Shown here piece by piece: positions 27,222 through 45,565 of a stretch of DNA of 64,000 bases. Below the pieces are notes generated by a model, which ran no database searches, was not told the origin of the DNA, and saw nothing but the letters and a program-made list of their open reading frames with translations. This DNA comes from Clostridia bacterium (GTDB lineage Bacteria > Bacillota > Clostridia > Oscillospirales > CAG-382). Numbering within the stretch: position 1 is the first letter of the stretch; every line of letters starts with the position of its first letter. The translations under genes and the position numbers were made by a program. The stretch is taken from positions 26,072 through 90,071 of the forward strand of contig JAFQHL010000045.1 of the NCBI GenBank assembly GCA_017397955.1, read 5' to 3'.

Positions 27222-27225
27222 CCAA

Positions 27226-28685: not shown

Positions 28686-28708
28686 TAAAAAAGCAAAAGG
28701 AGCCCAAT

Positions 28709-29149: not shown

Positions 29150-29505
29150 GTTTTAAAGATGAAGTAGCGCGTGATATACACGCCGTTTTTCTTAACGACA
29201 AAGAGTTTGCTGATAGACATACACTAAGGTACAGCGGAAAAACATACGAGAATATCCCTGTAACGCTTGTCAAACAGCAAGAAAGGGAGAAAAACGCAGG
29301 TAATACAGAATCGTTGTACTCAGTTGACGCTACTGCTTATATTTCTGAAACAGACTTAGAGGGCGCAATTCTTGAACCGCGTCAGTATCTTGAAATTGAC
29401 GACGGCACAGCCCTTGGCAAACCGTTCTTCGTGCATTATCGTATTCTATCGGTTGATAACGCTATGGGTATGTATGTTGTTGAGCTGGAGGCTCTTGATG
29501 AATGA
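29146..29505 (+). CDS. head-tail connector-like hypothetical protein
   Basis: 119 aa, translationally coupled to its neighbour. Position is equivalent to lambda FII. Confidence 0.35.
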   Translation: MSFKDEVARDIHAVFLNDKEFADRHTLRYSGKTYENIPVTLVKQQEREKNAGNTESLYSVDATAYISETDLEGAILEPRQYLEIDDGTALGKPFFVHYRILSVDNAMGMYVVELEALDE

Positions 29506-30164
29506 GCGTGACAAGAAAGACAGGTACGGGGCTTGGAGCGGTAATAGATGGCGGTGATGCCATAGAAAGAGCAAGACTGCTTTTGTCGGGTATACCCGGC
29601 GGTGCAGAAAAAGCCGTTAAAGCAGCCGTGTCCCGTGCCGCAAGTAATCTCAAAGCCAATTCAAGCCGTGAGGTTAGGAAAGAATACGCTATCTCACATA
29701 AAGGACTTAGCACCGACAAAAATGTACGCATCACTGCATACGGTGGGGGGCTTGGTGCAGATGTCGTTTTTCGTGGGATGAAAATACCACTTGCGAAGTT
29801 TTCTATTTCTCCTAAAGTACCTACACTCGACAAAACGAAGCTAATCAGCGCTTTAATCAACGGAGCGTGGAAAAAGGTACATCCCGGCAAACCAGTCAAA
29901 GCCAGTATAAAAATAGGAGCGCCTGGGGTGACATCAAAGCGCGCTTTCGTTGCCCGTATGTCTAGTGGGCATCTTGGTATATTTGATCGCAAAGACCGCA
30001 AATCTGCGGCAATTACCGAGCGTTTTGGGCCGTCAATTCCCGAGATGCTTTCAAATGAGGATGTTAGAAATCACCTTGTTATAGAAGCAGGAAGGGTGTT
30101 TGAAAACCGTGTTGAGCATGAGATTACAAGAATTCTTACCACTCAAGGAGGGCGAAGTTTATGA
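29502..30164 (+). CDS. minor tail protein Z-like
   Basis: 220 aa. AEKAVKAAVSRAASNLKANSSREVRKEYAIS and the later basic segment resemble lambda gpZ. Called by eye only. Confidence 0.4.
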   Translation: MSVTRKTGTGLGAVIDGGDAIERARLLLSGIPGGAEKAVKAAVSRAASNLKANSSREVRKEYAISHKGLSTDKNVRITAYGGGLGADVVFRGMKIPLAKFSISPKVPTLDKTKLISALINGAWKKVHPGKPVKASIKIGAPGVTSKRAFVARMSSGHLGIFDRKDRKSAAITERFGPSIPEMLSNEDVRNHLVIEAGRVFENRVEHEITRILTTQGGRSL

Positions 30165-30652
30165 CTGTAACAAAGCTGCTCTGTGATTTGAAAACTTTTT
30201 GCGAGAGGCAAACAGCACATTTTCTGTATTGTGTACCGGTGCAAAAAGGAGACACGGAAGAAAAGTGTAGACCGCCCAATGTATTTAAGCAAAGAGTGCC
30301 ACACACGGATGAAGCGGAAAAATATTCACCGCTCATACTTGTGCAGTATCTTGGTGGAGGAACAAAGCAACCGCAAGGGCTTAGGGCTGAAACAACCGCA
30401 AAAATCCGAATTTCATTTTGTGTTTACGACCGAACAAGCGAAGAAGAAGGCAGTATGGCTCTTTTAACGCTTATGGATGCTGTTAAGCACTCACTTCTGC
30501 AACAAGTAATCATAGGCAAACAATTTAAGCTTGACCTCGAAACGGGCGTCGAGGATGAGGTTTATAACGAAAACACAGCCCCTTACTATATCGGTGAGCT
30601 GAACTGTGTTTTTAAACTTCCGCCCGTTGAAAGAGAGGTTTATTATGGCTAA
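30161..30652 (+). CDS. tail completion / terminator-like hypothetical protein
   Basis: 163 aa. Called by position only. Confidence 0.3.
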   Translation: MTVTKLLCDLKTFCERQTAHFLYCVPVQKGDTEEKCRPPNVFKQRVPHTDEAEKYSPLILVQYLGGGTKQPQGLRAETTAKIRISFCVYDRTSEEEGSMALLTLMDAVKHSLLQQVIIGKQFKLDLETGVEDEVYNENTAPYYIGELNCVFKLPPVEREVYYG

Positions 30653-30929
30653 AAAGACGAAGTTAACACCAACGGTATCATCATCCGTTGGTGTTTATGT
30701 TTACCTTGGTCCTACAATCCACGGGGTTATTCAAAACGGTACAATCTTTAAGGGAGCCTTTGAAGATGTTTGTAAAAGAAACTTAGACGCGATCAAGCGC
30801 TTTCCTGACATTAGAAGATTTATTGTTAAAGATACCGAGGTGTCAAAAGTTAAAGCGTCGCTTAAGGAAGGCGAAAACTTTTTAAGTAACGCTTACAAAA
30901 AGATTATTTCTCAAATTCAAGGAGGATAA
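30645..30929 (+). CDS. hypothetical structural-module protein
   Basis: ATG 30645 follows an AAAGAGAGG RBS. 94 aa. Confidence 0.35.
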   Translation: MAKKTKLTPTVSSSVGVYVYLGPTIHGVIQNGTIFKGAFEDVCKRNLDAIKRFPDIRRFIVKDTEVSKVKASLKEGENFLSNAYKKIISQIQGG

Positions 30930-30932
30930 ATT

Positions 30933-32369
30933 ATGTTGGAACACGGCATTAACGCCGTCAAAGACGGCACGAACTTTGCCGCCGTTACTTCTGCAAAGTC
31001 CGGCATCCCTTGCTTTATCGGCGCGTGGCCCTGCCACGCGGCACAAGGGTACATGGGCGAGCCTCAGCTGATACTTAACTATGATGAGGCAGTAAAGGTG
31101 GGCGGCTACAGCGACGAGTGGAGAAATGCAGACGGCACGCCTAAATGGAATTTGTGCCAGGCGATATACGCTCACTTTAGATTGGCAGGTATGAGCCCTG
31201 CTATATTTATCAATGTTTTTGACCCTGCAGTTAACAAGAAAATCGCATCACGCGAAAAATGTGCTGTTGTTGATCACCGCGTAGTGATAGCCGACGGCAT
31301 CAAAGATTCAAGCCTTGAGGTAGAAGTTGACGCCGAGGTTGCGAATACCCTTACAGAAGGTGTAGATTACGAAGCTTACTATGTAAACAGTGCTCTTACA
31401 ATAGAACTTATTGAAGGTAGTTCCGCCTACAACATAGCTTCGTTGACAATCAGCTATAACAAAGCGGATCTTACAAGCATTACTGCAGACACCATAGAAA
31501 CGGCAATCGAAAAGGTTGAACGATGCAAAAACCTTTTGGGTGTTGTCCCCGATCTTCTTTGTGCTCCCGGTTGGAGTCAAACTCCTGCTGTCGCCGCACT
31601 TCTTGCGGTTAAGGCGGCAAATATAAACGGGCTTTATAAAGCTAAGGCAGTAGTGGACCTTGACACCTCTGAAGATGCTGCAGATACATACGACAAAGTT
31701 GCGGCGTATAAGACCGAAAACGGTTACACCGACGATAATCAGATAGTATGTTGGCCGCTTTTAAAGGCAAACGGATATGTGTTTGATTATTCCGTCATTC
31801 TTTGCGGTGCAATAGCAGCTATCGATGAAAGCAATGATAACTGTCCTTATGAAAGCCCTTCCAACAAGTTAATCAGCATAAGCGGTGCTTGTAACGCCGC
31901 AAACAAAGACATTTCTCTTCCCGTTCCCGAAGCAAATATCGTATGCAACGCAGGTGTGGTTACAGCTCTTAATTTTAACGGTTGGAGAATTTGGGGCAAC
32001 TATACAGCTTGTTGGCCCACAGAAGCAGATGTAGCAAAACATTTTATATGCACATCTCGTGTACAGGATTGGATATGCAATAGCTTTATAAATGCGTTTT
32101 GGAGCTATATAGACAGACCCATGACGCGTGTGCTTATTGACGCTGTTGTAGATTCTTTCAACTTGTGGCTTGCAGGGCTCAGAAGTGCAGGCGCTCTTCA
32201 TGATGGCGAAATACGGTATGTTGCCGACAATAACAATACTTCGCAGCTTATTGGCGGGCGTTTTCGCCTGGATACACGCAGCGCGTCTCCCACGCCTGCA
32301 CAGCGCATAGATATGCATGCCGAATTTGATGTAGATATGCTTGTAAGTGCGCTTAACAACAATGCATAG
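30933..32369 (+). CDS. contractile tail sheath protein
   Basis: 478 aa. Size and position immediately before the tube protein fit a sheath. Confidence 0.75.
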   Translation: MLEHGINAVKDGTNFAAVTSAKSGIPCFIGAWPCHAAQGYMGEPQLILNYDEAVKVGGYSDEWRNADGTPKWNLCQAIYAHFRLAGMSPAIFINVFDPAVNKKIASREKCAVVDHRVVIADGIKDSSLEVEVDAEVANTLTEGVDYEAYYVNSALTIELIEGSSAYNIASLTISYNKADLTSITADTIETAIEKVERCKNLLGVVPDLLCAPGWSQTPAVAALLAVKAANINGLYKAKAVVDLDTSEDAADTYDKVAAYKTENGYTDDNQIVCWPLLKANGYVFDYSVILCGAIAAIDESNDNCPYESPSNKLISISGACNAANKDISLPVPEANIVCNAGVVTALNFNGWRIWGNYTACWPTEADVAKHFICTSRVQDWICNSFINAFWSYIDRPMTRVLIDAVVDSFNLWLAGLRSAGALHDGEIRYVADNNNTSQLIGGRFRLDTRSASPTPAQRIDMHAEFDVDMLVSALNNNA

Positions 32370-32380
32370 GAGGTACAGAA

Positions 32381-32890
32381 ATGCACGGAACTATTGATTT
32401 TGCCGTTTATGAAGACGGCAAAAACTTTCTCGGTATTGCAAAGGTAGGCTTACCCGATATCTCTTACAAAAAAATTACGGTAAACGGCGCAGGTATCCCC
32501 GGTGATGTGGATATTCCTGTTTTGGGTCATACCGACGCTATGACCATGACTATTGATTTTACCGATCACAGAGCGGAGCAAGAGCGTCTTGCGGAAATGC
32601 GTACACATGTGCTTGATTTGCGTGTAGCAAAAGAGTCTTACGATCATGTTGCTGGCGACATATCCGTAATTCCGCATAAGTATGTGGTTAAGGTAATTCC
32701 CGTTTCCAAAACTGGCGGAGAGGTAGCCCCTGCTTCTGCGCAAACAACCACTAATACATATTCCTGCCTCTATATGGCAGAGTATATAAACGGCAAGCTT
32801 GTAAGGAAATACGATCCGTTTGCATACGACCATGTTGATGCATCCGGCAGAAATGTTCTTGCGGCGGTTAAAAGCGCCCTTGGTAAGTAA
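32381..32890 (+). CDS. tail tube protein (P2 FII-like)
   Basis: 169 aa. Contains FAVYEDGKNFLGIAKVGLPDISYKKITVNGAGIPGDVDIPVLGHTDAMTMTIDF. Confidence 0.75.
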   Translation: MHGTIDFAVYEDGKNFLGIAKVGLPDISYKKITVNGAGIPGDVDIPVLGHTDAMTMTIDFTDHRAEQERLAEMRTHVLDLRVAKESYDHVAGDISVIPHKYVVKVIPVSKTGGEVAPASAQTTTNTYSCLYMAEYINGKLVRKYDPFAYDHVDASGRNVLAAVKSALGK

Positions 32891-32900
32891 CCAAATTACG

Positions 32901-32932
32901 ACCGTGCCGCCTGATAAGTTAGGCGGCACGGT
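32901..32932 (+). terminator. intrinsic terminator/attenuator after the tube gene
   Basis: ACCGTGCCGCCT / AGGCGGCACGGT 12-bp stem followed by TTTT. Confidence 0.6.
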
Positions 32933-32958
32933 TTTACAGAATCAGAAAGGAGCAAAAT

Positions 32959-33327
32959 ATGAACACAAACGAAAACATAGACATCAACGAGGAAGAGGTC
33001 ATTGCAGCAAAAATGGAAGCAAAAAACTCTCCTGATGTTTTTACAATAAACTTTAAGACGCCCATACCCTACAATGAAAAAGAATATGCTTCTCTCACCT
33101 TTGATTTTGGCTCTCTTACGGGTAATGATGACCTTGCAATCGAAGATGAGCTCGCTGCGCTTAATGTAATGCTTGTAACGCCTGCTTTTTCGGGGCATTA
33201 TCTTATCAGAATGGCGGCTAAAGCTTGCAAAGAGCCTATTGGCTGTGACTTTTTAAGGGCATTAAACCTAAAGGAGTATTCTAAAATCAGAAGTGCCGCA
33301 CGAAGTTTTTTGCTAAAAGCGGAATAA
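32959..33327 (+). CDS. tail assembly chaperone (P2 gpE / lambda gpG analogue)
   Basis: 122-aa acidic protein located between the tube and the tape measure. Confidence 0.65.
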   Translation: MNTNENIDINEEEVIAAKMEAKNSPDVFTINFKTPIPYNEKEYASLTFDFGSLTGNDDLAIEDELAALNVMLVTPAFSGHYLIRMAAKACKEPIGCDFLRALNLKEYSKIRSAARSFLLKAE

Positions 33328-33476
33328 CCGTAAGTGACGGTGGAAGGTGGTTGCGTAAAGCCTGCCTTGCTTTGGCAGAAGCCAACAATACCCCCGTGCC
33401 GTACTGGTTATCGCTGTCTTTTCGGAGCCTAAGGGCGTGGATAAACGCCCATAACGATTTTCACAAACGCAAATAA
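32959..33476 (+). CDS. -1 frameshift-extended tail chaperone (gpE+E' / gpGT analogue)
   Basis: Slippery heptamer T_TTT_TTG at 33306-33312 in the X_XXY_YYZ register. The -1 frame is open for 54 codons (AKSGITVSDGGRWLRKACLALAEANNTPVPYWLSLSFRSLRAWINAHNDFHKRK) up to TAA at 33474-33476. Confidence 0.6.
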
Positions 33477-33494
33477 TAAAAGGAGGGCTGCTAT

Positions 33495-36400
33495 ATGGCT
33501 ACAAGAAAAGAATATGAAATGTTATTTAAGCTTGGTGCTCAGTTAGGGCAAGATTTTAACGGAAGCTTTTCTCAAGCTCAAAAAATCCTTTCCCAAACGC
33601 AAAAAGAAATAGCAGCCCTTCAAAAGGTACAAAGTGATATCACAGCTTATTCAAAACAAAATCAGTCTATAGCAGACACTCAAAACAAACTTGAGATGTA
33701 TGAAAAGCAACTGAAGGCTGTTAAGGCTGAACTGGAAGCTTCGGGTGGTAGTAGTGCCGCCCTTGCAAGTAAAGAGGCGGACCTTGAATACAAAGTTAAA
33801 AGCACCGCTGCCTCCTTGCAACAAAAAAAGGACAAGCTTAACGAATTAGGTCAAGCCTTGGAAGACGCCGGTGTTGATACAAGCAAGCTTGCTGATGAAT
33901 CCAAAAAATTAAAAGACAAAGTAAATGAACTTAAGGATGCAGAAAACGTGGCGGGCGAAGAAGCCAAGGTTATGGGCGACAAATCGGAAAGTGCTTTTTC
34001 GCAAATGGGCGAAGCACTTATCGCCGCAGGCGTTGCCAAAGGGCTTAAGGAGATAGTTGATTATTACGCCGAATGCGCCGACGGAGCTGCTGCTTACGCA
34101 GATGAGATAGGTACTATGTCAGTACAGTACGGCATAGCTGCTAAAGATTTGCAGGCATATACATACGCTGCCGAATTACTTGATGTTGATGTTAACACTA
34201 TTACTTCTTCCCTTGCACGAAACACAAGAGCGATGTATAACGCTGCGGATGGCTCAGCTCAGTATGTAGAGGCGTATGACAAAATCGGCATATCCGTAAC
34301 AGATGCAAACGGCAATTTAAGAGATGCTCAGACAGTATATTGGGAGGCAATAGACGCGCTAAGCGCTATGACCAATGAAACCGAGCGTGACGGTATTGCC
34401 ATGACACTGTTAGGGCGCAACGCTATGGAGCTTAACACCCTTATCAAAGCCGGTTCGGGTGTAATGAATGAATATACCGCTATGGCTGAAGAAGCGGGGT
34501 ATATTATGTCGGAAGAGGTGCTTGAAACCCTTTGTGCCCTTGACGACCAAGAACAAATACAGCAAAAAAATCTGCAAGGTTTAAAAAATACAATCGGGGC
34601 TGCTGTTGCTCCTGAACTTATAAAGCTTAAACAAATTCAAAACGAAATGCTCGTGAGTGTTACAGAATTTGCCGCAGAAAACCCCGGCATTGTAAAAGGA
34701 GTCGTACTCATTGCGGGCGCTCTTAGTACGCTCTTGTCGGTATACACTGCTTATAAAGGTGCAAAAGTCGCTATTATCGCTCTCAGAAAGCTTAACAAGC
34801 TCCTAATTAAGGAAGAAACAGCAGCAAAGGTCGCTTCAACAACCGCAACCCAGGGTGCCACCGCAGCACAACACGGATTTAATGCGGCTATGAATGCGAA
34901 CCCTGTAGGAGTTTTTGCTGTGTCCTTAACTTCTCTTATCGGACTTTTTTCTGTTTTGAAAAATGAGACGAAAAGTGCTTCGTATGAATTACTAACGCTT
35001 TCTCGAGATTATGCAAAAGAGGTTAAAAACCTACAAGAAGAATCAAGGCAATTAAGCGATAGTTACGAGGAGTCAGTACTAAACTCGGAAGCTTCTGCCG
35101 ATGCAGCTTTAGCGTATTTAGATCGCCTTATGGAATTAGAGAAACAGGGCATAAAGACTGTTGAACAGCAAAAAGAGTACAATCAGCTGTTAGAACGAAT
35201 CAAGTCCATTATGCCTGATATAAACCTTCAAATAGATGAGCAAACCGGATTATACAAAGGCGGAGCAACTGCACTTGAAGATCAAATAAAAGCACAAAAA
35301 GAGCTAATAAAACTTGAAGCAATTAAAGATTATGCGGCGGGACTGGAAAAGCAAGCGGTAGAAACGCAGGCACAAACACAAAAAATAAGGGAAGAGCTGG
35401 AAGCGGCAAATAAATTATATCAAGAAATAGGCGGTGACGAAGCAAGAAAAAAAGAAAATAAGAATATGGCATCGTCCTATTCCGGTTTGTATGCTGCGCT
35501 TACTGCAGATGCAAATGATGCTTATTTAGCGGTTCTTTCTCTTGAAAAGAGTTTAGAGGAATCGGAAAAAACATATCAAGGAATTCAATCAGAGTTGGAT
35601 TGGCTTTGGGATGAATATTACGAGGGAGAGACAGCAACTTTAGGGCTTGAAGAGCGGACAAACTCACTAAACGATACCATTGAGGGTGCTGCAAAGACCT
35701 CTGCAGAAAACATACTTACCTTGGTAGAAGCTTACGAGGAGGCAAGAAGTGCAGCGGAAAGCAGTATAACAAGCCAATATAATCTTTGGGATACCGCTGC
35801 AACAGTTATTCCGAAAGACATCTCAGATATAAACACCGCCCTTGAAACACAAACGGCGTATTGGAGCAATTATACCACCGATCTGACAGACTTAAGAGAT
35901 AGCGCATCTCATATTGAAGGCTTGGAGGAAATAATAGCTACATTCGCCGACGGTAGCGAGGACAGTGTAAACACGATAGCTTCTCTTGCCAACGCTACCG
36001 ATGAAGAGCTGAACAATTTTGTTAAGAATTATCAGGTCTTAAAACAGTATCAAGCAGATGCCGCAAACGCTATTGCGGAAACTAAAAGTCCGCTTGAAAC
36101 CGCCATTGAAGAATTAAATCTCTCAGAAGAAGCCGAAAACGCAGGTCACGCAACTATCGAGGCATACATACAGGCAATAAGAGAAGGCACACCGGACGCC
36201 GAAGCGGCAGCATCTGAGTTGGCGGAGATTATAAAAGAATCTTTCCCGTCTGTGACAGTCCCGGGCGTAGGAACTTTTACAGTTCCTAAGTACAGCGCAG
36301 TAGCCCTTCCGGGATACGCAACCGGAACCGATTTTGCTGCCCGTGGTTGGGCACTTACAGGTGAAAACGGTCCGGAGCTTATATATTTCAACGGTGGAGA

Positions 36401-36614
36401 GACAGTTTATGATGCCAATGAAACCACCGATATCCTTAGACCTACAGGGGGGGATCATAGAGAAATACAACTTACTGTGGCACCTGTATTTCATGTTACA
36501 ACCACAGATAGTATTGACGATGCTCTTGAAAGATGTAATGAGCAAATAGTCCAAAATGTACTGGAAGCATTAAATGAAGCGGCGCTTGACAGCAGGAGAG
36601 GAGCTTATGCATGA
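33495..36614 (+). CDS. tape measure protein
   Basis: 1039 aa, coiled-coil-rich with central hydrophobic segments. Canonical position in the tail module. Confidence 0.85.
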   Translation: MATRKEYEMLFKLGAQLGQDFNGSFSQAQKILSQTQKEIAALQKVQSDITAYSKQNQSIADTQNKLEMYEKQLKAVKAELEASGGSSAALASKEADLEYKVKSTAASLQQKKDKLNELGQALEDAGVDTSKLADESKKLKDKVNELKDAENVAGEEAKVMGDKSESAFSQMGEALIAAGVAKGLKEIVDYYAECADGAAAYADEIGTMSVQYGIAAKDLQAYTYAAELLDVDVNTITSSLARNTRAMYNAADGSAQYVEAYDKIGISVTDANGNLRDAQTVYWEAIDALSAMTNETERDGIAMTLLGRNAMELNTLIKAGSGVMNEYTAMAEEAGYIMSEEVLETLCALDDQEQIQQKNLQGLKNTIGAAVAPELIKLKQIQNEMLVSVTEFAAENPGIVKGVVLIAGALSTLLSVYTAYKGAKVAIIALRKLNKLLIKEETAAKVASTTATQGATAAQHGFNAAMNANPVGVFAVSLTSLIGLFSVLKNETKSASYELLTLSRDYAKEVKNLQEESRQLSDSYEESVLNSEASADAALAYLDRLMELEKQGIKTVEQQKEYNQLLERIKSIMPDINLQIDEQTGLYKGGATALEDQIKAQKELIKLEAIKDYAAGLEKQAVETQAQTQKIREELEAANKLYQEIGGDEARKKENKNMASSYSGLYAALTADANDAYLAVLSLEKSLEESEKTYQGIQSELDWLWDEYYEGETATLGLEERTNSLNDTIEGAAKTSAENILTLVEAYEEARSAAESSITSQYNLWDTAATVIPKDISDINTALETQTAYWSNYTTDLTDLRDSASHIEGLEEIIATFADGSEDSVNTIASLANATDEELNNFVKNYQVLKQYQADAANAIAETKSPLETAIEELNLSEEAENAGHATIEAYIQAIREGTPDAEAAASELAEIIKESFPSVTVPGVGTFTVPKYSAVALPGYATGTDFAARGWALTGENGPELIYFNGGETVYDANETTDILRPTGGDHREIQLTVAPVFHVTTTDSIDDALERCNEQIVQNVLEALNEAALDSRRGAYA

Positions 36615-36823
36615 CGACATACACAACAAAGCAGGGGGATACATGGGATAGCATATCACATAATATCTTGGGCGATTGTAAATATACAAACTTGCTTATG
36701 GAAGCTAACACTCAATACTTAAACATTTGCATTTTTACATCCGACATTGTATTAGTGATTCCGGATATAGATAAGAACACTTTGGCGAACACTTTGCCGC
36801 CTTGGAAGAGGGTGTTGGGATGA
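36611..36823 (+). CDS. tail protein X (LysM-like)
   Basis: 70 aa. TYTTKQGDTWDSISHNILGD...LVIPDID matches the gpX/LysM pattern. Confidence 0.65.
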   Translation: MTTYTTKQGDTWDSISHNILGDCKYTNLLMEANTQYLNICIFTSDIVLVIPDIDKNTLANTLPPWKRVLG

Positions 36824-38559
36824 GCAACAAGGAACAAATACGCCGCGTTTCCGCCAAAGTGTTTTTCGATGGTGTTGATATAAGTGATGATATTGATAAA
36901 TATTTGCTTTCGCTTACATACACAGATAACGAATCGGGGGAAACTGATGACCTGCAAATAAAGCTTTGCGACAAAGATGATATATGGCTTAAAAGTTGGC
37001 TTAATAAGGCAATTTGGGCGGCATCCGCCTCATCGTACAGCGCTGTTGCATCTAAAAAAGAAACATCAGTATCCAATTTGTATAAGGTGTCTGCAAAAAC
37101 AGGAGCGGCGGTTCATAGCAGACCCGGAGTGTTGTACTATGTTTACGGTACCCTTCCGTATGGCACCGTAATTACTGTAAGCTCTATATCTGACGGATGG
37201 GCGAACTTTGTTTTTTCAGGCAAAAACGCCTATGTCAGAGCAAACCTGTTAACCTCTACTCAGGCATCTTATAACAGTTCTCCCCAAACATCTTACGATG
37301 CAGAGTGGCAAATAGGGGATGCCGTTATTGCCAACGGTGCTCCACACGAATCCAGCTACGGTTCAGGAAAGACAGGTGCTGTTGTTACCAATTACGAAAG
37401 CACGGTCACTTACTTAAACTTAAAGGCAGGTGTACCTTATCCTATTTGCGTTGGAAACATAGGGTGGTTTGCTGTGACCGATGTAAAACACCGCGGTTCG
37501 GCGTCCTCTCAAGCCGAGTATGACGGTGCATGTAAAGGTATGAAAATACAAGCCGTGCTTGTTCGTCATAATTGGACAGGTAACGGAGAAGACGAGGTGC
37601 TTGATTGTGGGAGTTTTGAACTTGACGGTGTAGGTGCATCGGGTCCTCCTTCTGCAATAAATATCAAAGCAACCTCCTTAACATATAACAGCAGCGCAAG
37701 GCAAACCAAGCACAGCAAGTCGTGGGAATCATATTATTTAAAAGGGATTGCAGAAGAAATAGCACAAAAAAACGGAATGACTTGTGTCTTTTGCACCGCT
37801 AAAAACCCTTTTTATGAGCGCGTGGAACAGTACAAAACCAGCGACATAGCTTTTCTTAACAAACTGTGTTCGGATGCAGGGTGTGCTTTGAAGTGCACCA
37901 ATAATATCATAGTTATATTTGACAGCGTTGCGGCTGCATCTTCCAAATCCATGGTAATAGACAGAAACAAACTTCCCAGTGATACTAAGTACAACCTTAC
38001 AACACAGCAAAATTCAGCATATACGAGCTGCAGAGTAAGTTATGTTACTCCTTCAGGTCAACTTATTGAAGCAACAGCGTATGTAGATGACTACGATGCT
38101 GAAAACGATAAGAATCAATGTTATGAAGTTTCACAAAAAGTTAGCAACACTGCGGAAGCCAAGGCTTTGGCAGCTACCACTCTTAAAAATGTCAATAAAT
38201 TCAGCATCAATATTAGCTTTACTTTCCCTTTTACGACCACATTGTTTGCGGGAAGTTGCGTTGAACTTGTTAATTACGGGTATTGGTCAGGTATATATGC
38301 TGTATCCCAAGCAAAGCACAGTATCGGCTCTTCTGCATCCACTACTCAGATTACACTGCGAAAGCTTACCGCATCTGAAATTGAAGAAAACGGAAAAACC
38401 ACATATAACGCCAATAAAAGTATAGAACAACTTGCACTTGAGGTTATTCGTGGAGAGTGGGGCACAGGGCAAGAGCGCAGACGCAGGCTGACGGAAGAAA
38501 ATTACGATTATAACGCCGTTCAAACTATGGTAAATCAGATATTAAGCAAGGGAGGATAA
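36820..38559 (+). CDS. late control D-like tail hub protein with inserted SH3b-like domain and C-terminal Cpl-7-type repeat
   Basis: ATGA-coupled start at 36820. gpD-like N-terminus (RVSAKVFFDGVDISDDIDKYLLSLTYTDNESGETDDLQIKL). SH3b-like segment at about 37081-37251. C-terminal IEQLALEVIRGEWGTGQERRRRLTEENYDYNAVQTMVNQIL. Confidence 0.65.
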   Translation: MSNKEQIRRVSAKVFFDGVDISDDIDKYLLSLTYTDNESGETDDLQIKLCDKDDIWLKSWLNKAIWAASASSYSAVASKKETSVSNLYKVSAKTGAAVHSRPGVLYYVYGTLPYGTVITVSSISDGWANFVFSGKNAYVRANLLTSTQASYNSSPQTSYDAEWQIGDAVIANGAPHESSYGSGKTGAVVTNYESTVTYLNLKAGVPYPICVGNIGWFAVTDVKHRGSASSQAEYDGACKGMKIQAVLVRHNWTGNGEDEVLDCGSFELDGVGASGPPSAINIKATSLTYNSSARQTKHSKSWESYYLKGIAEEIAQKNGMTCVFCTAKNPFYERVEQYKTSDIAFLNKLCSDAGCALKCTNNIIVIFDSVAAASSKSMVIDRNKLPSDTKYNLTTQQNSAYTSCRVSYVTPSGQLIEATAYVDDYDAENDKNQCYEVSQKVSNTAEAKALAATTLKNVNKFSINISFTFPFTTTLFAGSCVELVNYGYWSGIYAVSQAKHSIGSSASTTQITLRKLTASEIEENGKTTYNANKSIEQLALEVIRGEWGTGQERRRRLTEENYDYNAVQTMVNQILSKGG

Positions 38560-38561
38560 AT

Positions 38562-38780
38562 ATGGAAACGCTAAGAATCGGGACTGTGCAAAGCGTAGAT
38601 ATAACACAACGCACTGTAAGAGTCTTCTTTACAGATACTAAAATCGTTTCAGCTCCTTTAAAAGTTTTAAGGCATTGTGCAGACCTTTCGGATGCATGGT
38701 TGCCTAATGTAAATGATACAGTGCTTTGCTTATACAAAGAATCTTTTAACGGTGATGGATATGTCATAGGAGGTGTATGA
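38562..38780 (+). CDS. baseplate assembly V / spike N-terminal OB-like small protein
   Basis: 72 aa. Contains RIGTVQSVDITQRTVRVFF...LPNVNDTVLCLY. Confidence 0.45.
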   Translation: METLRIGTVQSVDITQRTVRVFFTDTKIVSAPLKVLRHCADLSDAWLPNVNDTVLCLYKESFNGDGYVIGGV

Positions 38781-39190
38781 TGAGCACCGGCAGAACAATA
38801 GGTTGTTTTGGTGATGTGGTTTTCAGCGTATCTGCCGAAGCTGTAAAAACCATTAGAAGTTTGTCCGTATCTCATTCCGCAAGCATTCAAAGCCATAAAC
38901 GCAGGTTACAGAAACCTTTACACGAATTCATCGCACCTGACGCAGATACTGCGTCATTTTCTTTGCGGTTATCGCAGTTCCTTGGCGTGACACCTAAAGA
39001 TGATTATGAGAAGCTGAAAAGTTATCTTTTGCAAGGCATACCAAAGCCTTTTGTTTTGGGTGAAAGTCGTGTGGGAGATAACATGTGGTATATATCAAAG
39101 CTAAAAAATATTACAGACCGTTTTAATATAAACGGTAATGCTGCTGATATTGATCTTTCGGTATCCCTAACAGAGTGTCCAAAGGAGTGA
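38777..39190 (+). CDS. phage tail protein, GpU-like
   Basis: 137 aa. Weak resemblance by eye to the P2 GpU family, supported by gene context. Confidence 0.35.
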   Translation: MMSTGRTIGCFGDVVFSVSAEAVKTIRSLSVSHSASIQSHKRRLQKPLHEFIAPDADTASFSLRLSQFLGVTPKDDYEKLKSYLLQGIPKPFVLGESRVGDNMWYISKLKNITDRFNINGNAADIDLSVSLTECPKE

Positions 39191-39194
39191 AAAA

Positions 39195-39500
39195 GTGAAA
39201 TACATTGTAAAAAGCAATGAACCTCCTAAGCTTACGCTTGTCGAGAGCAATGAGGTGAATTCAATACTCCAAAATGTGTATATAATTCTAAATTCATACA
39301 AAGGTACAGTCCCTATGTATCGTGACTTTGGGATAAATGCCGCGTACAAGGACAGGCCTATGTCAGCGGCTAAAGCTTTGTTGGTTGCTGACATCACAGA
39401 AGTAATAGAAAAATTCGAACCGAGGGTGAAGACTGCTACGGTAATATTCACCGCAGACGATGCAGAAACTTTAGTAGCACAAGTGGAGGTGACCGTATGA
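39195..39500 (+). CDS. baseplate wedge protein, GPW/gp25 family
   Basis: 101 aa. Contains ILQNVYIILNSYKGTVPMYRDFGIN. Confidence 0.65.
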   Translation: MKYIVKSNEPPKLTLVESNEVNSILQNVYIILNSYKGTVPMYRDFGINAAYKDRPMSAAKALLVADITEVIEKFEPRVKTATVIFTADDAETLVAQVEVTV

Positions 39501-40861
39501 CCGAAAATTACAGATTTGTATCTACAGATGTAGAATCAGTATTAACTGAGTTACTGGAATCCTATAAAAAAGAAACAGGACATACCGTGCGTCCTGCAGA
39601 CCCTGAAATGCTGTTTATAAGATGGTTGGCAAACTGCATTGTTCAGGAGAGGATAATGCAAAATTTTGTTGGAAACCAAAACATTCCCAGTCGTGCTGTA
39701 GGTGAGAATTTAGACGCCCTTGGGGAAACGATATACAACCTAAAACGACCCGTTGCCCAACGGGCAAAATGCACTATGAGGTTTTATATCCAGACTCAGG
39801 GAACGGCTACGATTATTCCGGCCGGAACAAAAGTAACGGATAGCGGCGGCGCTCTCTTTTGGCAAACAACTGCAGATGCTGTTATCAATATGTGGTCTGA
39901 ATACAGTGATGTGATGGTCCAATGTCTAAGTGCTGGAGACGCAGGGAACGGATACGCCCCGGGACAAATTAACAAGCTCGTAGATGTAGATAATATTCCT
40001 CGCTTTTTGCGTTGTGAAAATATCGACACCAGTTATGGCGGTTCAGAAATTGCCACAGACAGTGAATATTTTGAGCTTATGAAAAACTCTCTTGATTCCT
40101 ATAGCGTGGCAGGTCCTTCGGGAGCGTATGAATATTGGGCTAAAACCGCATCGACAGACATAGCAGATGTCAAAGCGGTACAGCCCAAAGAATTACTTAA
40201 AACAAAATTGCCGCTCTATACGCGTCAAGATAAAAGATATGCTTTTTTAGGCGGAGACCAATTGTTGAAAGACAGTCTTGTTGTGCGCCAAAAAGGAAGC
40301 ACGGATATAGCAGCTCCCAATTTTGAATACACGGTGAATTACCAAGACGGACTTTTGACTATAGAAGTTTTGGATGGAATTCAGTCGGATGAAATTGATG
40401 TTGAGATAGAACGCCTTAAAGCGTGCTGTGTCAATATATACGCTTTGATGAAAGACGGAACACCGGCGACGGAGGCGATAAAAGACGAAATATACAAAGC
40501 TTGCAATGCTGATTTCGTTAGACCGCTAACGGATTATGTAGCATGCGCCGACCCCGTTGTGGTACCTTATAACATCTCTCTACACTATTACATACCCGAT
40601 GATACAGTAGATAGTGCAAAAAATATTGAGGTGGCTGTAAACGAAGCGGTTGATAATTATATAGCGTGGCAGTCGGCTAAAATGGGACGCGATATAAATC
40701 CGTCCGAACTGTACAAACGGATTATGCAAGCTGGTGTAAAGCGTGTGGAAATTGAGGCGCCTGCCTTTACTTCTTTGCAAAGCGGCAAAAACAACACAGT
40801 GCCTCAGGTAGCTTTGGTTGGAACAATCAATGTTGTAAACAGAGGTGTGGAAGATGAATAA
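39497..40861 (+). CDS. baseplate J-like protein
   Basis: 454 aa, located after the gp25-like gene and coupled to it. Confidence 0.7.
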   Translation: MTENYRFVSTDVESVLTELLESYKKETGHTVRPADPEMLFIRWLANCIVQERIMQNFVGNQNIPSRAVGENLDALGETIYNLKRPVAQRAKCTMRFYIQTQGTATIIPAGTKVTDSGGALFWQTTADAVINMWSEYSDVMVQCLSAGDAGNGYAPGQINKLVDVDNIPRFLRCENIDTSYGGSEIATDSEYFELMKNSLDSYSVAGPSGAYEYWAKTASTDIADVKAVQPKELLKTKLPLYTRQDKRYAFLGGDQLLKDSLVVRQKGSTDIAAPNFEYTVNYQDGLLTIEVLDGIQSDEIDVEIERLKACCVNIYALMKDGTPATEAIKDEIYKACNADFVRPLTDYVACADPVVVPYNISLHYYIPDDTVDSAKNIEVAVNEAVDNYIAWQSAKMGRDINPSELYKRIMQAGVKRVEIEAPAFTSLQSGKNNTVPQVALVGTINVVNRGVEDE

Positions 40862-41426
40862 AGCTTACGAGTCCACATCATTGCTACAACTGCTTCCCGA
40901 TGTCTTAATGGCAGATGAATCTGTAAGAGCATTAGCTGTGGCAACCGCTGATGAAAACGCAAAAAATTTTGTTAATACCAAAAATTTACAGGTTTTTACA
41001 AGGATAACCGAACTTGAACAGCCTTTGTTGGACATTCTTGCATCGGACTTTAAAGTGGATTGGTATCTCCCCGATGCAGATGTACGCGCAAAACGCGCTC
41101 TAATTAAATTGTGCTTTTTTGTGCATAAAACATTGGGGACTAAGGCGGCAATGTTAAGAGCGCTTACAGGCCTTTGCCCGGGTACGGAGCTGAAAGAGTG
41201 GTTTGAGTACGATGGTTTACCCGGACATTTTAAGGTGCTGTTTGATATAACAAATCAAACAACACCTGTAAATTATGCAACATTAAAACATTTAATAGAA
41301 ATTTTCAAACCTAAAAGGTCGATTCTTGATGAGAGTTACGCAGTTTACAATTTGCAGATGTTAAATTTGGGTAGTACCATTTTGTCTTGCACAAAAGAAA
41401 TAACATTAATATGTGAAAGGAGCTAA
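40854..41426 (+). CDS. tail protein I (P2 gpI-like)
   Basis: Contains LLQLLPDVLMADESVRAL...LLDILASDFKVDWY...AKRALIKLCFFVHKTLGTKAAM. Confidence 0.6.
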   Translation: MNKAYESTSLLQLLPDVLMADESVRALAVATADENAKNFVNTKNLQVFTRITELEQPLLDILASDFKVDWYLPDADVRAKRALIKLCFFVHKTLGTKAAMLRALTGLCPGTELKEWFEYDGLPGHFKVLFDITNQTTPVNYATLKHLIEIFKPKRSILDESYAVYNLQMLNLGSTILSCTKEITLICERS

Positions 41427-41431
41427 TTATT

Positions 41432-42295
41432 ATGAGTTTTCCTGCACTTGAATTGACGGAGAATGGAAAAAGACTCTTGTCAAATGCTTTGGTAGGTCAA
41501 AAATTAAATTTTTCAAAAATTGCAATAGGTTCAGGAGTTATGTCTGAGGATGCAAAAAAACTTACAGAACTTGTTGTATTAGAAAAAGATATACCAATAA
41601 GCGGCATGCAAGCTGAATTGGGTACTGCACGCTTGTTGGCGACATTGGATAATACGGAAACAACAGAGGGCTTTTGGTGGCGAGAAATAGGTATTTACGC
41701 AAATGATGAGAACGGCGAAGTGTTGTATGCATACGCTAACGCAGGAGAATACGCTGAATATATTCCGGCGTATACAAGCGCATCCTTTGTCAGAACCACC
41801 ATAACAGTAAATGTAATGGTCGGTAATGCTGAAAATGTAACCGCAAGCATTGCCGATTATGCGGGATACATAACCTTTTCAGATTTTCAACAGCACTTAT
41901 CGTCGGCTAATCCCCATAATGTTACCGCTGCAGATGTTGGGCTAAGAGTTACAAACGAAGGCATTTTACAGTACCTTAATAATGGTGTTTGGCGTTCGGT
42001 AGCTACCTCTCCCAGCATTCATCTTTATATGAGCGACCATTCGGAATTTGAATCTGTTTCCGTATCTCTTTATAATACTTATGTGGACGAAGGAATGGAT
42101 GACACTACATTCATAGAAACCATAGAAAAACCCGTAATAGACGGAGCCGCAAGTGTAAGGTTTTTTGTACCCCAATTAGGCGTGTATCGTGTAGTAATAA
42201 CATGTAATTATAAGGTTGAAGGTGAGGCGCCTTTTGTAGTAAAGAAAAACGTTGTAGTAGATGATGCTATGTCGTATAGCGAACAAATGACTTGA
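41432..42295 (+). CDS. tail-collar fibre protein (DUF3751-like N-terminus)
   Basis: Contains ELTENGKRLLSNALVGQKLNFSKIAIGSG...WWREIGIYANDENGEVLYAYAN. Confidence 0.65.
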   Translation: MSFPALELTENGKRLLSNALVGQKLNFSKIAIGSGVMSEDAKKLTELVVLEKDIPISGMQAELGTARLLATLDNTETTEGFWWREIGIYANDENGEVLYAYANAGEYAEYIPAYTSASFVRTTITVNVMVGNAENVTASIADYAGYITFSDFQQHLSSANPHNVTAADVGLRVTNEGILQYLNNGVWRSVATSPSIHLYMSDHSEFESVSVSLYNTYVDEGMDDTTFIETIEKPVIDGAASVRFFVPQLGVYRVVITCNYKVEGEAPFVVKKNVVVDDAMSYSEQMT

Positions 42296-42309
42296 ATATG
42301 GAGGATAGT

Positions 42310-42585
42310 ATGGCACAGCAAGTAAAAAGAGTTGAATTGGAAGGAAGTATAACACAAGTCATTTTTCCAAATCAATGCGGAAGATACCTTGTAAAGAACT
42401 TTTCTGACGAAGATATTTATGTATCGTTCGAGGAATCGGTAGAGTTTAATACAAGCATTAAGATAACCGCCGGCATGGCGCAGGTGTGCATCATAAACGA
42501 GCGCAACGGCTCCGGGCAAGAAAAAGCCAATTGTATTTACATAAGCGGAACCGGGGAAGTAGAGGTACAGCAGTTATGGTGGTAA
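42310..42585 (+). CDS. hypothetical tail-fibre-associated protein
   Basis: ATG 42310 follows a GGAGGA RBS. 91 aa. Confidence 0.35.
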   Translation: MAQQVKRVELEGSITQVIFPNQCGRYLVKNFSDEDIYVSFEESVEFNTSIKITAGMAQVCIINERNGSGQEKANCIYISGTGEVEVQQLWW

Positions 42586-43484
42586 ACGATAACAGTTATG
42601 TCTTTCCCGTTATTAACGACAGCGGCGGTAGCCATGTTAAAAATCGCAATGTTTTACAACTTCTATACACCGAGGGCGCAGAGATAACGGCGGAGGATTG
42701 GGGAAGTGCTAATATCATCACGAATAATAATGCAGACAGTGCTGAAATGCAAGCTGTGTCGTTCCGTGGCACTTTATGCAAAAGTATTGTATTTCCCGAT
42801 TCGCAAATTAAACCCGTTTCACTTTGGGACAACAAAAACTTAGAGTATTACGATAGTGGAAATGGTATGTATTCCCGTGGCTATTTTGACCAGTCCAATC
42901 AAGGGCACACGCTTTTTAAGGGATGCTCTGCCTTAAAAACACTTTGGATGGGTGAAGATTTTTTGCCATTCGGTACAAATGCTTTTCAGAATTGTTCATC
43001 CTTAAAAGAAATACACTATCGTGGGACATTAGATAAATGGGCTGAAATACGAAGTTCGGGAAAAGGCACGAACCGACCGTTTTCAGCAAGTGGCGGTGGT
43101 AGTTTTTATTTGGGAGATAGCACCGAGCCGTTGACCGAAATAAATTTAACTACAGCCAAAACAATAATGGGCGGCGCTTTTGCCTCTTTCGCCGATGTCG
43201 AAAAAGCTATTATAGGTGAAACCGTGGAAACCATACAAGACCAATGTTTCGTATCTTGTGCAAAGTTAAAAGTTGTTATCTTAAAGGGTGATACAGTAAA
43301 AACATTGTCAAATGCGAATACCTTTAACTACACACCAATATACAACGACACAGGCACTATATACATTCAGCCTCTAACTGTTGACGAAGCCACGCTTGTG
43401 GCAGAATACAAGGCGGCAACGAATTGGAGCGCATTCGCAAATATCAAACCCTTTAGCGAATACACGGGAGGTGCTGAACAATGA
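42576..43484 (+). CDS. BspA-type leucine-rich-repeat (LRR_5) protein, putative receptor-binding tail component
   Basis: ATG 42576. Repeats such as LFKGCSALKTLWMGEDFLPFGTNAFQNCSSLKEIHY and IMGGAFASFADVEKAIIGETVETIQDQCFVSCAKLKVVIL. Confidence 0.55.
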   Translation: MVVNDNSYVFPVINDSGGSHVKNRNVLQLLYTEGAEITAEDWGSANIITNNNADSAEMQAVSFRGTLCKSIVFPDSQIKPVSLWDNKNLEYYDSGNGMYSRGYFDQSNQGHTLFKGCSALKTLWMGEDFLPFGTNAFQNCSSLKEIHYRGTLDKWAEIRSSGKGTNRPFSASGGGSFYLGDSTEPLTEINLTTAKTIMGGAFASFADVEKAIIGETVETIQDQCFVSCAKLKVVILKGDTVKTLSNANTFNYTPIYNDTGTIYIQPLTVDEATLVAEYKAATNWSAFANIKPFSEYTGGAEQ

Positions 43485-43783
43485 CATATCAAGAACGAAT
43501 TGAGCAGTTAAAGCAAGAATATGATATTGTCGCAGACGAAGCGGACGGCACTTTGCACACTATGACTATTCAGCGAAAATCGGACGGAAGCGTATACGCG
43601 TTCACTATTTCTGAGCTTTACACTATAGCCCGTGACGGTGCTGAGTATGACGAAGCTATTGACCCTTTAGACAGTCGTAGAGTTTACACGGAAACGGCAA
43701 ATCTTAAGGCAGGCGTTGAAGATGATGAAGCAACTGAAGCTGATTATCTTGCCGCTCTTGCAAAGTTAGGGGTGAGCGAATGA
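43481..43783 (+). CDS. hypothetical acidic protein
   Basis: 100 aa, coupled to both neighbouring genes. Confidence 0.35.
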   Translation: MTYQERIEQLKQEYDIVADEADGTLHTMTIQRKSDGSVYAFTISELYTIARDGAEYDEAIDPLDSRRVYTETANLKAGVEDDEATEADYLAALAKLGVSE

Positions 43784-43941
43784 AAAAAGCGGAGCTAAAC
43801 AAAAAGACCGAGACTGTAATAAGCGAAGCCAAAGAAGCTTTGCAAACAGTGTATGATGCTTTGAATTCGGGTCAGCAGAAGAAGGTTTTAAAAGACGAAG
43901 CCGTAAAGGTCTTGTTCGACCGTTACGGCGTTGAATACTAA
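43780..43941 (+). CDS. small (53 aa) hypothetical protein, not in the ORF track
   Basis: ATGA overlap with the upstream stop. Sequence MKKAELNKKTETVISEAKEALQTVYDALNSGQQKKVLKDEAVKVLFDRYGVEY. Confidence 0.4.
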   Translation: MKKAELNKKTETVISEAKEALQTVYDALNSGQQKKVLKDEAVKVLFDRYGVEY

Positions 43942-43956
43942 AAGGGAGTGCATAGT

Positions 43957-44448
43957 ATGAAAACAAATCTTACAAAATTTACACTTTCGGTGGCATTTGC
44001 CTCCATAGGCAGTATGTGCAAGGAGCTTGCGGTTCCGTTTGTTGTGCTGTGCGTATTGATGCTTGCCGATTACATTACCGGCATGGTTAAAAGTTGGCAG
44101 TTGGGCACTTTGTGTTCTCGCACCGGTATAAAAGGCTTTATAAAAAAACTTTGCTACGGGCTCGCGGTTGTAGCGGCAATAGGCATTGACTATGTAATAG
44201 TAATAGCATCCTCAAAACTTGGCTACGATATCGGCATACAGCCTTTCTTTGGCTGGCTTTGCACTGCTTGGCTTATTATTAACGAATGCATCAGCATACT
44301 CGAAAATTTAAGTGCTATGGGTGTACCTATGCCGGCCTTTCTTGTAAAGGCGGCAAAGAAACTTAAGAATAACGTAGAAAGCGCAGCTGATAACGCAAAA
44401 GAAAGCGACGAAAACAAGGAGAGGGAAAATGAAAACAAAAGACTATAA
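43957..44448 (+). CDS. phage holin (holin family 4 / TcdE-like)
   Basis: ATG 43957 follows an AAAGGGAG RBS. Contains WLIINECISILENLSAMGVPMP. Paralogue of 5727-6176. Confidence 0.8.
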   Translation: MKTNLTKFTLSVAFASIGSMCKELAVPFVVLCVLMLADYITGMVKSWQLGTLCSRTGIKGFIKKLCYGLAVVAAIGIDYVIVIASSKLGYDIGIQPFFGWLCTAWLIINECISILENLSAMGVPMPAFLVKAAKKLKNNVESAADNAKESDENKERENENKRL

Positions 44449-45187
44449 AATATACATATCGCCTGCAAACCATTACAAGCAGTACGCTATACCCGGTTAT
44501 AACGAAAAGCAGCAAATGGACCTGCTTGCACCTAAGCTTGTAGAAGCTTTAAAAAAATACGAGGGCGTTACACCCATACCCGCCACTGTGTTTGCGCTCA
44601 GCCGTGATTACCAGGGCAGGCCGGAAGAAGCCCAAAAAATGGGATGTGATATCTACACAGCACTTCATAGCAACGGCGGCGGCGGCAAAGGTGCTTGCCT
44701 TTACTATCACCCAAAATACGAGCTTTCCAAAAAGCTTGCTCTCAGTATTGTTGCCGAGCTTAACGCAATATGCCCCATCAAGAGTAATAGAGCCGTACAG
44801 CCCGCTATTTATCCTTGGAGTTATAATGAATGGAATTTTGGCGAAGTGAGGGAGCCGGCGAACAAAGGTATTGTACCGGTGCTTATAGAACACGAATTTC
44901 ACGACACCGTTGAAGGCGCACAGTGGATAATAGACAACCTGGACGCAATTGCCGAAGCGGACGCCCGTGCCATCGCCGCTGCTTTAGGCCTTAAGCTTAA
45001 AGAAGTGCCCGGCGATGTAAACGGGGATGGTGAAGCAAACAGCCTCGACGCGGCGCAGATTCTCAAGCAAGACGCAGGGCTTGCATCTTTCACAGAAGAG
45101 CAACTTGCCGCCGCCGATGTAAACGGCGACGGCATGGTAAACAGCCTCGACGCCGCACAGATACTCAAGCACGACGCTGGGCTTTAA
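44429..45187 (+). CDS. N-acetylmuramoyl-L-alanine amidase endolysin with C-terminal dockerin repeats
   Basis: 252 aa, collinear with 6169-6927. Dockerin segments DVNGDGEANSLDAAQILKQDAG and DVNGDGMVNSLDAAQILKHDAG. Confidence 0.8.
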   Translation: MKTKDYKIYISPANHYKQYAIPGYNEKQQMDLLAPKLVEALKKYEGVTPIPATVFALSRDYQGRPEEAQKMGCDIYTALHSNGGGGKGACLYYHPKYELSKKLALSIVAELNAICPIKSNRAVQPAIYPWSYNEWNFGEVREPANKGIVPVLIEHEFHDTVEGAQWIIDNLDAIAEADARAIAAALGLKLKEVPGDVNGDGEANSLDAAQILKQDAGLASFTEEQLAAADVNGDGMVNSLDAAQILKHDAGL

Positions 45188-45207
45188 AAGTTAGAGAAGT
45201 TATACAT

Positions 45208-45247
45208 AATGAGGAGTTATACAAACAATGTTGTGTAATTCCTCATT
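45208..45247 (+). terminator. imperfect 17-bp hairpin after the endolysin gene
   Basis: AATGAGGAGTTATACAA / TTGTGTAATTCCTCATT with two mismatches, followed by a T-rich tract. Confidence 0.5.
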
Positions 45248-45329
45248 ATTTTATCGGTTTCTCCTAAAACGAATATACTGGTCGAAACCATGGGCGGTTA
45301 GCCCCCGATAAATGCGACCGAAAAAGAAT

Positions 45330-45364
45330 CCCCCATCATAGGTTGTTATAACCTATGATGGGGG
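45330..45364 (+). terminator. perfect 15-bp hairpin plus T-tract
   Basis: CCCCCATCATAGGTT-GTTAT-AACCTATGATGGGGG followed by TATTTTG. Confidence 0.55.
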
Positions 45365-45412
45365 TATTTTGTGTTAATAAACAGTGGATAGGTCAATTAC
45401 ACATTTGGAATG

Positions 45413-45436
45413 TAAAGGGTATGCTAAAGGGTAAAA
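45413..45436 (+). repeat. TAAAGGGTA direct repeats with 12-nt spacing (candidate integrase arm-type site)
   Basis: TAAAGGGTAtgcTAAAGGGTAAAA has the same motif, spacing and orientation as 7105-7128. Confidence 0.5.
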
Positions 45437-45452
45437 GTTAATTTGGATATAA

Positions 45453-45489
45453 AAAAGACCGCTTAAATCAAGTGTTTAAGCGGTCTTTT
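45453..45489. terminator. bidirectional hairpin abutting the tRNA 3' end (phage-supplied tRNA terminator)
   Basis: AAAAGACCGCTTAAA / TTTAAGCGGTCTTTT 15-bp stem with A/T runs on both sides. Confidence 0.65.
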
Positions 45490-45490
45490 C

Positions 45491-45513
45491 TGGAGCTGGT
45501 AGTGGGATTTGAA
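45491..45513. repeat. att core copy 2 (attR), identical to 6979-7001
   Basis: An exact 23-nt match that forms the T-arm and acceptor 3' end of the tRNA. Confidence 0.85.
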
Positions 45514-45565
45514 CCCACGGCCTATTGATTACGAATCAATTGCGCTACCCCTGCGCCATACCAGC
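45491..45565 (-). tRNA. tRNA-Thr (anticodon CGU)
   Basis: The reverse complement folds as a cloverleaf: acceptor GCTGGTA/TACCAGC, D stem GCGC/GCGC, anticodon stem ATTGA/TCAAT with loop TTCGTAA, T stem GTGGG/CCCAC with loop TTCAAAT. CCA is encoded. Confidence 0.9.

Follow-up and report, generated by a model that had tools for sequence, protein, structure and literature searches.

Two related lysin genes in a 64,000-nucleotide (nt) stretch of contig JAFQHL010000045.1, referred to as the window, encode an amidase domain followed by a C-terminal dockerin. The dockerin appears to replace the wall-binding domain of these enzymes and may dock them on cohesins displayed at the host surface, for targeting, retention or both. 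We give this explanation a probability of roughly 60%. One gene belongs to a prophage and the other to a chromosomal cassette (coordinates refer to the window).

44429..45187, + strand: lysin 2, endolysin of an intact prophage (252 amino acids; Pfam, PHROG, AlphaFold2, Foldseek, dockerin matches in the PDB)
6169..6927, + strand: lysin 1, last gene of a four-gene chromosomal cassette (252 amino acids; Pfam, synteny)

An earlier note on this DNA had placed two amidase genes ending in duplicated dockerin repeats at these positions, and both open reading frames (ORFs) were found exactly there. Domains were assigned with Pfam gathering cut-offs of 22.9 bits for Dockerin_1 and 27 bits for Amidase_3. 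Dockerin_1 spans residues 194-245 of each protein and exceeds its cut-off by a wide margin, with 51.2 bits in lysin 2 (nt 45008-45163) and 52.4 bits in lysin 1 (nt 6748-6903). Amidase_3 was detected at residues 22-184 of lysin 1 (45.3 bits) and at residues 22-183 of lysin 2 (nt 44492-44977), where the score of 27.9 bits is marginal. The marginal call is backed by PHROG endolysin families 435 and 2742, by the 70% gap-free identity of lysin 2 to lysin 1 and by structural superposition with Foldseek. Neither lysin contains an SH3, LysM, CW_7, SPOR or choline-binding domain at an expectation value (E) of 0.1 or below in Pfam, in agreement with the absence of SH3, LysM, CW_7 and choline-binding repeats reported in the note. 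No signal peptide was found in either protein, as the N-termini MKTKDYKIYISPANH and MNKKTHRIYLSPANH lack a hydrophobic segment.

Dockerins are EF-hand-like modules that fold on binding Ca2+ and attach to the cohesin modules of cellulosomal scaffoldins. By profile score and by their duplicated segments of about 22 residues, each consisting of a Ca2+ loop and a helix, the lysin tails are type-I dockerins (PF00404). The two halves, DVNGDGEANSLDAAQILKQDAGL and DVNGDGMVNSLDAAQILKHDAGL, are identical at 20/23 positions, and each has a complete D-x-N-x-D-G-x-x-x-x-x-D loop (D196/N198/D200/D207 and D230/N232/D234/D241). Across 27 homologues as distant as 55% identity, these loop residues are invariant or nearly so. 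By itself, the 62-residue tail picks up the solved dockerins 1OHZ_B (E 9.5e-6), 2CCL_B and 2Y3N_B. An AlphaFold2 model of the lysin has a mean predicted local distance difference test score (pLDDT) of 88 and a predicted template modelling score of 0.79. Its dockerin region, with pLDDT of about 81-94, folds as three helices (205-215, 223-229 and 239-249).

By Foldseek, the catalytic half of the model superposes on several Amidase_3 structures (E 1e-9 to 1e-7), among them CwlV, CD27L and PlyPSA (E 1e-8 to 1e-7). H15, E26, H80, E139, E154 and E156 are invariant in the 27-homologue alignment and presumably map to the Zn site. The fold is common to the endolysins CD27L (phiCD27, 3QAY) and PlyPSA (Listeria phage PSA, 1XOV) and the phiCD111 active domain (9JZO); against endolysin chains consisting only of an Amidase_3 catalytic domain, the Foldseek probability is 1.0 and the target template modelling score 0.70-0.76. 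Like the lysins, Amidase_3 endolysins of Gram-positive phages have two domains and no signal peptide, and their genes close the late operon behind a holin gene. The difference lies in the C-terminal module, which serves wall-polymer binding or oligomerisation in the known enzymes and is a type-I dockerin, whose known ligands are cohesins, in the lysins.

What the dockerin replaces can be read from the nearest dockerin-less relatives, P0076-P0082, in which Amidase_3 (38-45% identical in the catalytic domain) is followed by SPOR. Because SPOR stands at the same position in these proteins, the dockerin occupies the wall-binding slot. The SPOR domain binds denuded glycan strands, and the combination of Amidase_3 and SPOR without a signal peptide typifies the CwlC-type sporulation amidases, which lyse the Bacillus subtilis mother cell at the end of sporulation. 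P0076-P0082 share the size and architecture of these amidases. The lysins have no C-terminal SPOR and so depart from the CwlC type, the dockerin taking the place of SPOR and the gene being coupled to a holin.

Cohesins are encoded by the host. Its genome assembly (1.9 Mb, 70 contigs, 91% complete) yielded 94 Dockerin_1 matches and at least 5 Cohesin matches, the latter at or above the Pfam cut-off, which agrees with the expectation in the note that the host has cohesins. That expectation had been drawn from a dockerin in a secreted protein of the window, and this dockerin was also recovered, although its subtype differs from that of the lysins.

2501..3445, - strand: host secreted protein (signal peptide, Dockerin_1 with 44 bits, two Big_3 and one SH3_3; Pfam)

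A custom hidden Markov model found 92 host dockerin ORFs, 91 of them long enough for alignment, and these fell into clear sequence groups. The largest group, about 49 ORFs, includes both lysins and carries the motif NSLDAAQ[IV]L[KR]xDA[GQ]LI in both halves. Compared with the 47 host dockerins of this 'NSLDAAQILKxDAGLI' subtype, the lysin 2 dockerin has a mean identity of 65% and a maximum of 76%; identity within the main subtype is 61%, and that of lysin 2 to the other 42 host dockerins is 31%. By these comparisons the lysin dockerins are typical members of the main dockerin subtype of the host.

The ten best-scoring carriers of the main group include purple-acid-phosphatase-like and NAGPA-like proteins, lectins, a BspA-type leucine-rich repeat (LRR) protein, a GDSL lipase and an Amidase_2 ORF; three of the ten have no recognised domain besides the dockerin and none is a glycoside hydrolase. 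The repertoire looks like a general surface-display system. It resembles the Ruminococcus bromii amylosome (PMC4611034), which also belongs to a small-genome gut bacterium of the Oscillospirales with many non-cellulase dockerin carriers and small cohesin-dockerin adaptors. It differs in the absence of glycoside hydrolases among the ten profiled carriers, and no phage involvement has been described for the amylosome. Two secreted Amidase_3 proteins (C57:75681-78120 and C57:78418-79903) have signal peptides and dockerins of another subtype, and the Amidase_2 ORF named above, a stop-to-stop frame of 1269 residues (C54:3206-7012), has the same dockerin subtype as the lysins. Dockerins are therefore also found on wall hydrolases of the host itself. 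In line with a cellulosome or amylosome subunit, the lysins have a dockerin matching the repertoire of a host with cohesins; they were not filed as canonical subunits because their N-termini lack the Sec signal peptide.

Among the cohesin ORFs, C61:5104-5904 and C15:1614-2477 encode small adaptor-like proteins that pair a cohesin with a dockerin, C49:244-1833 and C62:28117-31980 encode larger multidomain proteins, and one more encodes a protein referred to as C24 (C24:667-1539, - strand). The last, 291 residues long, combines a signal peptide and a probable cohesin with an acidic linker rich in Ser and Glu; its C-terminal transmembrane anchor lacks an LPXTG motif. This layout is kept in orthologues of about 300 residues across the genus (L084-L086), making C24 a candidate membrane-anchored docking site.

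The fusion of Amidase_3 to Dockerin_1 is widespread in one genus. More than 70 clusters of proteins of about 250 residues with this architecture and 53-92% identity were found in a search of 5.8 billion proteins. The full-length fusion occurs in 11 of the 12 other genomes of the genus and in none of 108 genomes from 14 other genera of the family; another genus of the family has a different amidase and dockerin lineage. The metagenome-assembled genomes (MAGs) concerned appear to derive from uncultured Oscillospiraceae or Clostridia of goat, sheep, rabbit and other animal guts. Dockerins also terminate at least three more Amidase_3 lineages. The dockerin of one (P0084-88) is of the same subtype as in the lysins, and those of the others (P0097 and P0116; P0102, P0106 and P0108) belong to two differing subtypes. 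P0087 is a phage protein whose gene has the portal gene on one side and the prohead-protease gene on the other. In a phage lineage other than that of the window (L054 8001-8801), an Amidase_3 and dockerin gene lies between portal and prohead-protease genes, an odd position for an endolysin.

Sequence divergence points to constraint on both halves of the protein. In the four least saturated pairs, the ratio of nonsynonymous to synonymous substitution rates (dN/dS) was 0.07-0.15 for the dockerin and 0.08-0.11 for the amidase. Lysin 2 compared with L036 gave 0.11 for the amidase and 0.12 for the dockerin, and the cassette lysin orthologues of L040 and L041 gave 0.09 and 0.15, respectively. By this measure both domains are under purifying selection. 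Lysin dockerins reach about 72-75% identity to their best matches in the same host or its near relatives, against 60-66% for more distant congeners, and this holds in both directions, which is consistent with tracking of the host repertoire.

Given its place in the wall-binding slot, the purifying selection, the match to the host main subtype and the repeated recruitment, docking on a surface cohesin is the best explanation of the dockerin. The lysins would be made in the cytoplasm as holin-dependent N-acetylmuramoyl-L-alanine amidases, with a dockerin captured from, or co-evolving with, the main dockerin subtype of the host. Once the holin opens the membrane, the lysin would meet extracellular Ca2+ and its dockerin would fold. 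The folded dockerin could then plug into a surface-displayed cohesin, the candidates being the five host cohesin-bearing proteins including C24. Docking would raise the local concentration of amidase on the wall of the cell being lysed and would also hold the enzyme on debris, as high-affinity wall-binding domains do in other Gram-positive lysins. Cohesin binding, its Ca2+ dependence, the choice of partner and the gain for the phage are inferences. The proposal of the note that lysins are targeted through cohesins is partly supported; all the computational checks that the note had named as able to refute it were run, and none did so.

Several points weigh on the other side. The sequences at hand do not reveal which cohesins a dockerin prefers. 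Secretion through Sec is the rule for canonical dockerin proteins but not for the lysins, about 50 competing host dockerin proteins may already fill the free cohesins, and the catalytic domain may work without any targeting module. The Amidase_3 score of lysin 2 is barely over its cut-off (27.9 against 27 bits), and the resemblance of lysin dockerins to those of their own host is confounded by shared ancestry. The cohesin of C24 is marginal in Pfam (23.5 bits), with matches in 2/4 orthologues. Its AlphaFold2 model, built from four sequences, has a pLDDT of 46.6 and is too poor for a fold search, and a C24 profile run against the PDB reached cohesins at non-significant values only (E 0.25 and 0.69). 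The co-occurrence of cohesins with lysins in 11/11 lysin-bearing genomes was rejected as evidence and carries no weight, because cohesins are present in 100 of 121 genomes of the family (83%).

A broader reading covers the whole genus. The cohesin-dockerin pair may be a general surface hold for peptidoglycan hydrolases from which phages captured a host dockerin, so that a protein receptor, a specific cohesin and possibly C24, sets the site of the lysin. We hold this only tentatively, at a little below even odds. It includes the equally tentative idea that lysin targeting is a protein-protein lock that can be re-programmed by exchanging one dockerin subtype for another. That four independent amidase lineages bear different dockerin types suggests that such an exchange has occurred.

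To our knowledge, the wall-binding modules of known endolysins all recognise wall carbohydrates or peptidoglycan. Targeting through cohesin and dockerin would be an unusual mode for a lysin, and an endolysin that carries a protein-docking module where others bind the wall would be a new form of modular endolysin. If the docking model is correct, a high-affinity, Ca2+-dependent protein-protein interaction is a new principle of lysin targeting, phages make use of the machinery by which gut Oscillospirales display cellulosomes or amylosomes, and engineered lysins against uncultured gut anaerobes gain an orthogonal, swappable handle. The predicted interaction is directly testable with recombinant dockerin and cohesins.

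Dockerin-bearing lysins were also sought among phages. Scans of IMG/VR with lysin 2, the family alignment and two other dockerin-lysin lineages recovered catalytic domains only and no dockerin-bearing lysin, and tblastn against 50,697 deposited phage records gave no full-length lysin match. Three hits covered the dockerin only and were rejected; they fall in LRR, CotH-like and Ig-repeat proteins with signal peptides, not in lysins, on unverified faecal 'phage' contigs. No description of a dockerin-bearing phage endolysin was found in the literature on dockerin or PF00404 with phage lysins, in which subscription journals were partially covered.

The assignment of lysin 2 to a phage comes from the element around it.

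7002..45490, + strand: intact prophage of about 38.5 kb (PHROG, Pfam, profile of guanine plus cytosine (GC) content)
6979..7001, no strand: attL, 23-bp direct repeat TGGAGCTGGTAGTGGGATTTGAA (exact repeat search)
45491..45565, - strand: tRNA-Thr(CGT), with the second 23-bp repeat, attR, as its 3' end (45491-45513)
9481-10683, - strand: tyrosine integrase (PHROG/Pfam)
36802..38559, + strand: tail hub protein with a C-terminal CW_7 repeat of the peptidoglycan-binding kind (Pfam CW_7, 61 bits; PHROG tail protein)
43948..44448, + strand: prophage holin, Phage_holin_4_1 (Pfam, 100 bits)

The prophage is apparently complete, myovirus-like and integrated in tRNA-Thr. It holds, in order, low-GC cargo, the tyrosine integrase, large terminase, portal, prohead protease and major capsid protein, followed by tail sheath, tape measure, the CW_7 hub, baseplate, tail fibre, an LRR_5 protein, the holin and lysin 2. 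The 3' end of the holin gene overlaps the start of lysin 2 by 20 nt. Since lysin 2 is the last gene of this apparently complete prophage, it is the endolysin of the phage; its Amidase_3 domain and fold, adjoining holin, location in the late lysis region and missing signal peptide are those of an Amidase_3 phage endolysin. The CW_7 repeat on the tail hub means that the phage keeps a conventional wall-binding module on the virion while its endolysin has a dockerin. The cargo (7002-9400, about 37% GC) extends from attL to the integrase and encodes a SocA/Panacea-domain protein (8072-8590) followed by a 255-residue ORF; it may be a toxin-antitoxin or defence module.

Lysin 1 has a different setting. 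The note had taken both genes for phage endolysins, which stands for lysin 2 inside the intact prophage and needs correction for lysin 1, which lies outside attL in a conserved chromosomal cassette.

5727..6176, + strand: cassette holin, Phage_holin_4_1 (Pfam; 56% identical to the prophage holin)
4344..5712, + strand: two cassette ORFs of 263 and 191 amino acids, conserved upstream of the holin in other species

The cassette (4344-6927) consists of these two ORFs, the holin and lysin 1, whose gene slightly overlaps that of the holin, and adjoins attL from the outside. The 263- and 191-residue ORFs have no informative match in Pfam or PHROG and no paralogue in the prophage or genome. The order ClpP-like gene, cassette, tRNA-Thr and dpaA-dpaB recurs in at least five other species (MAGs L040, L041, L045, L047 and L048), with only the holin and lysin in L047 and L048; L042 and L050 have a rearranged version. 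This recurrence indicates an old phage-derived module kept across the genus, beside which the present prophage integrated. Scaffold L082, a metagenomic sequence from a closely related strain (98-99% identical), contains a prophage-free site with a hybrid lysin gene at 1663-2421. The 5' part of the hybrid is identical to lysin 1 and the 3' part equals lysin 2 save for one mismatch, the crossover falling within a 53-bp run identical between the two lysin genes. The hybrid arose either when recombination deleted the 38-kb prophage or as a chimera of the assembly.

Lysin 1 resembles endolysins in its holin neighbour and lack of a signal peptide; its location in a conserved chromosomal cassette sets it apart. 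For lysin 1 alone, the cassette could be no decaying remnant but a domesticated phage lysis module that serves the host, for example in programmed autolysis or in mother-cell lysis, the task of CwlC. In favour of this, the cassette keeps its place between the ClpP-like gene and tRNA-Thr/dpaA/dpaB in at least five other species, its ORFs intact, and dN/dS is about 0.1-0.15 between the cassette orthologues of L040 and L041. The neighbours are the sporulation genes YqfD and DpaA/DpaB, a setting that recalls the CwlC-type amidases, the closest dockerin-less relatives are CwlC-like proteins with Amidase_3 and SPOR, and no SPOR domain was found in the 91% complete host genome. Against this, ClpP and DpaB, which flank the cassette, evolve more slowly than the genes within it, and the sporulation neighbourhood may be coincidental because the site is a phage attachment site. 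Domestication is possible but unlikely.

A second alternative concerns the dockerin itself, which might bind no cohesin and act instead as a Ca2+-dependent fold or switch, or a stabilising tail, unfolded at the low Ca2+ of the cytoplasm and folding only outside the cell, or else bind a wall polymer directly. Folding of dockerins on Ca2+ and synthesis of the lysins in the cytoplasm without a signal peptide would suit a switch. Dockerin-like modules also occur in many non-cellulosomal proteins and take part in processes unrelated to classical cellulosome function (PMC6487960). The lysin dockerin, however, is no divergent dockerin-like module; it is typical of the host main subtype, also at the helix residues through which dockerins usually touch cohesins. 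A pure switch would need no tracking of the host subtype, and other lysin lineages bear different dockerin subtypes. We regard this alternative as improbable.

Least probable is that the dockerin binds cohesins but pays off after lysis on other cells, in a 'lyticome' enzyme for attack or competition on the scaffolds of neighbours or of the lysogen population and not as an aid to lysis from within: dockerin-linked lysozyme and peptidase modules have been so interpreted in ruminococci and rumen metagenomes (PMC6403190, PMC6487960, PMC6780208) and the host has secreted Amidase_3 and Amidase_2 proteins with dockerins, but the lysins have no signal peptide, their translational coupling to holins at a prophage end is the classic endolysin arrangement, and killing cells with the matching cohesin would remove potential hosts of the phage or kin of the lysogen. 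The precedents include the Ruminococcus champanellensis scaffoldin ScaK, which has a glycoside hydrolase family 25 (GH25) lysozyme (PMC6780208; Morais et al. 2016), and dockerin-lysozyme and D-Ala-D-Ala carboxypeptidase ORFs of a rumen metagenome (PMC6487960). Like the lysins, these ruminococcal cellulosome hydrolases join a wall-cutting enzyme to the cohesin-dockerin system in Oscillospirales gut bacteria. Unlike them, they are secreted host proteins read as anti-competitor weapons, belong to other catalytic families and have no holin or prophage context.

BspA-type LRR_5 proteins were seen beside lysis genes in two places, at 42486-43484 of the window and at L054 8814-9908, in an unrelated phage with a dockerin-bearing lysin. 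The host itself encodes surface proteins that combine LRR_5 with a dockerin, for example C15:18580-20421.

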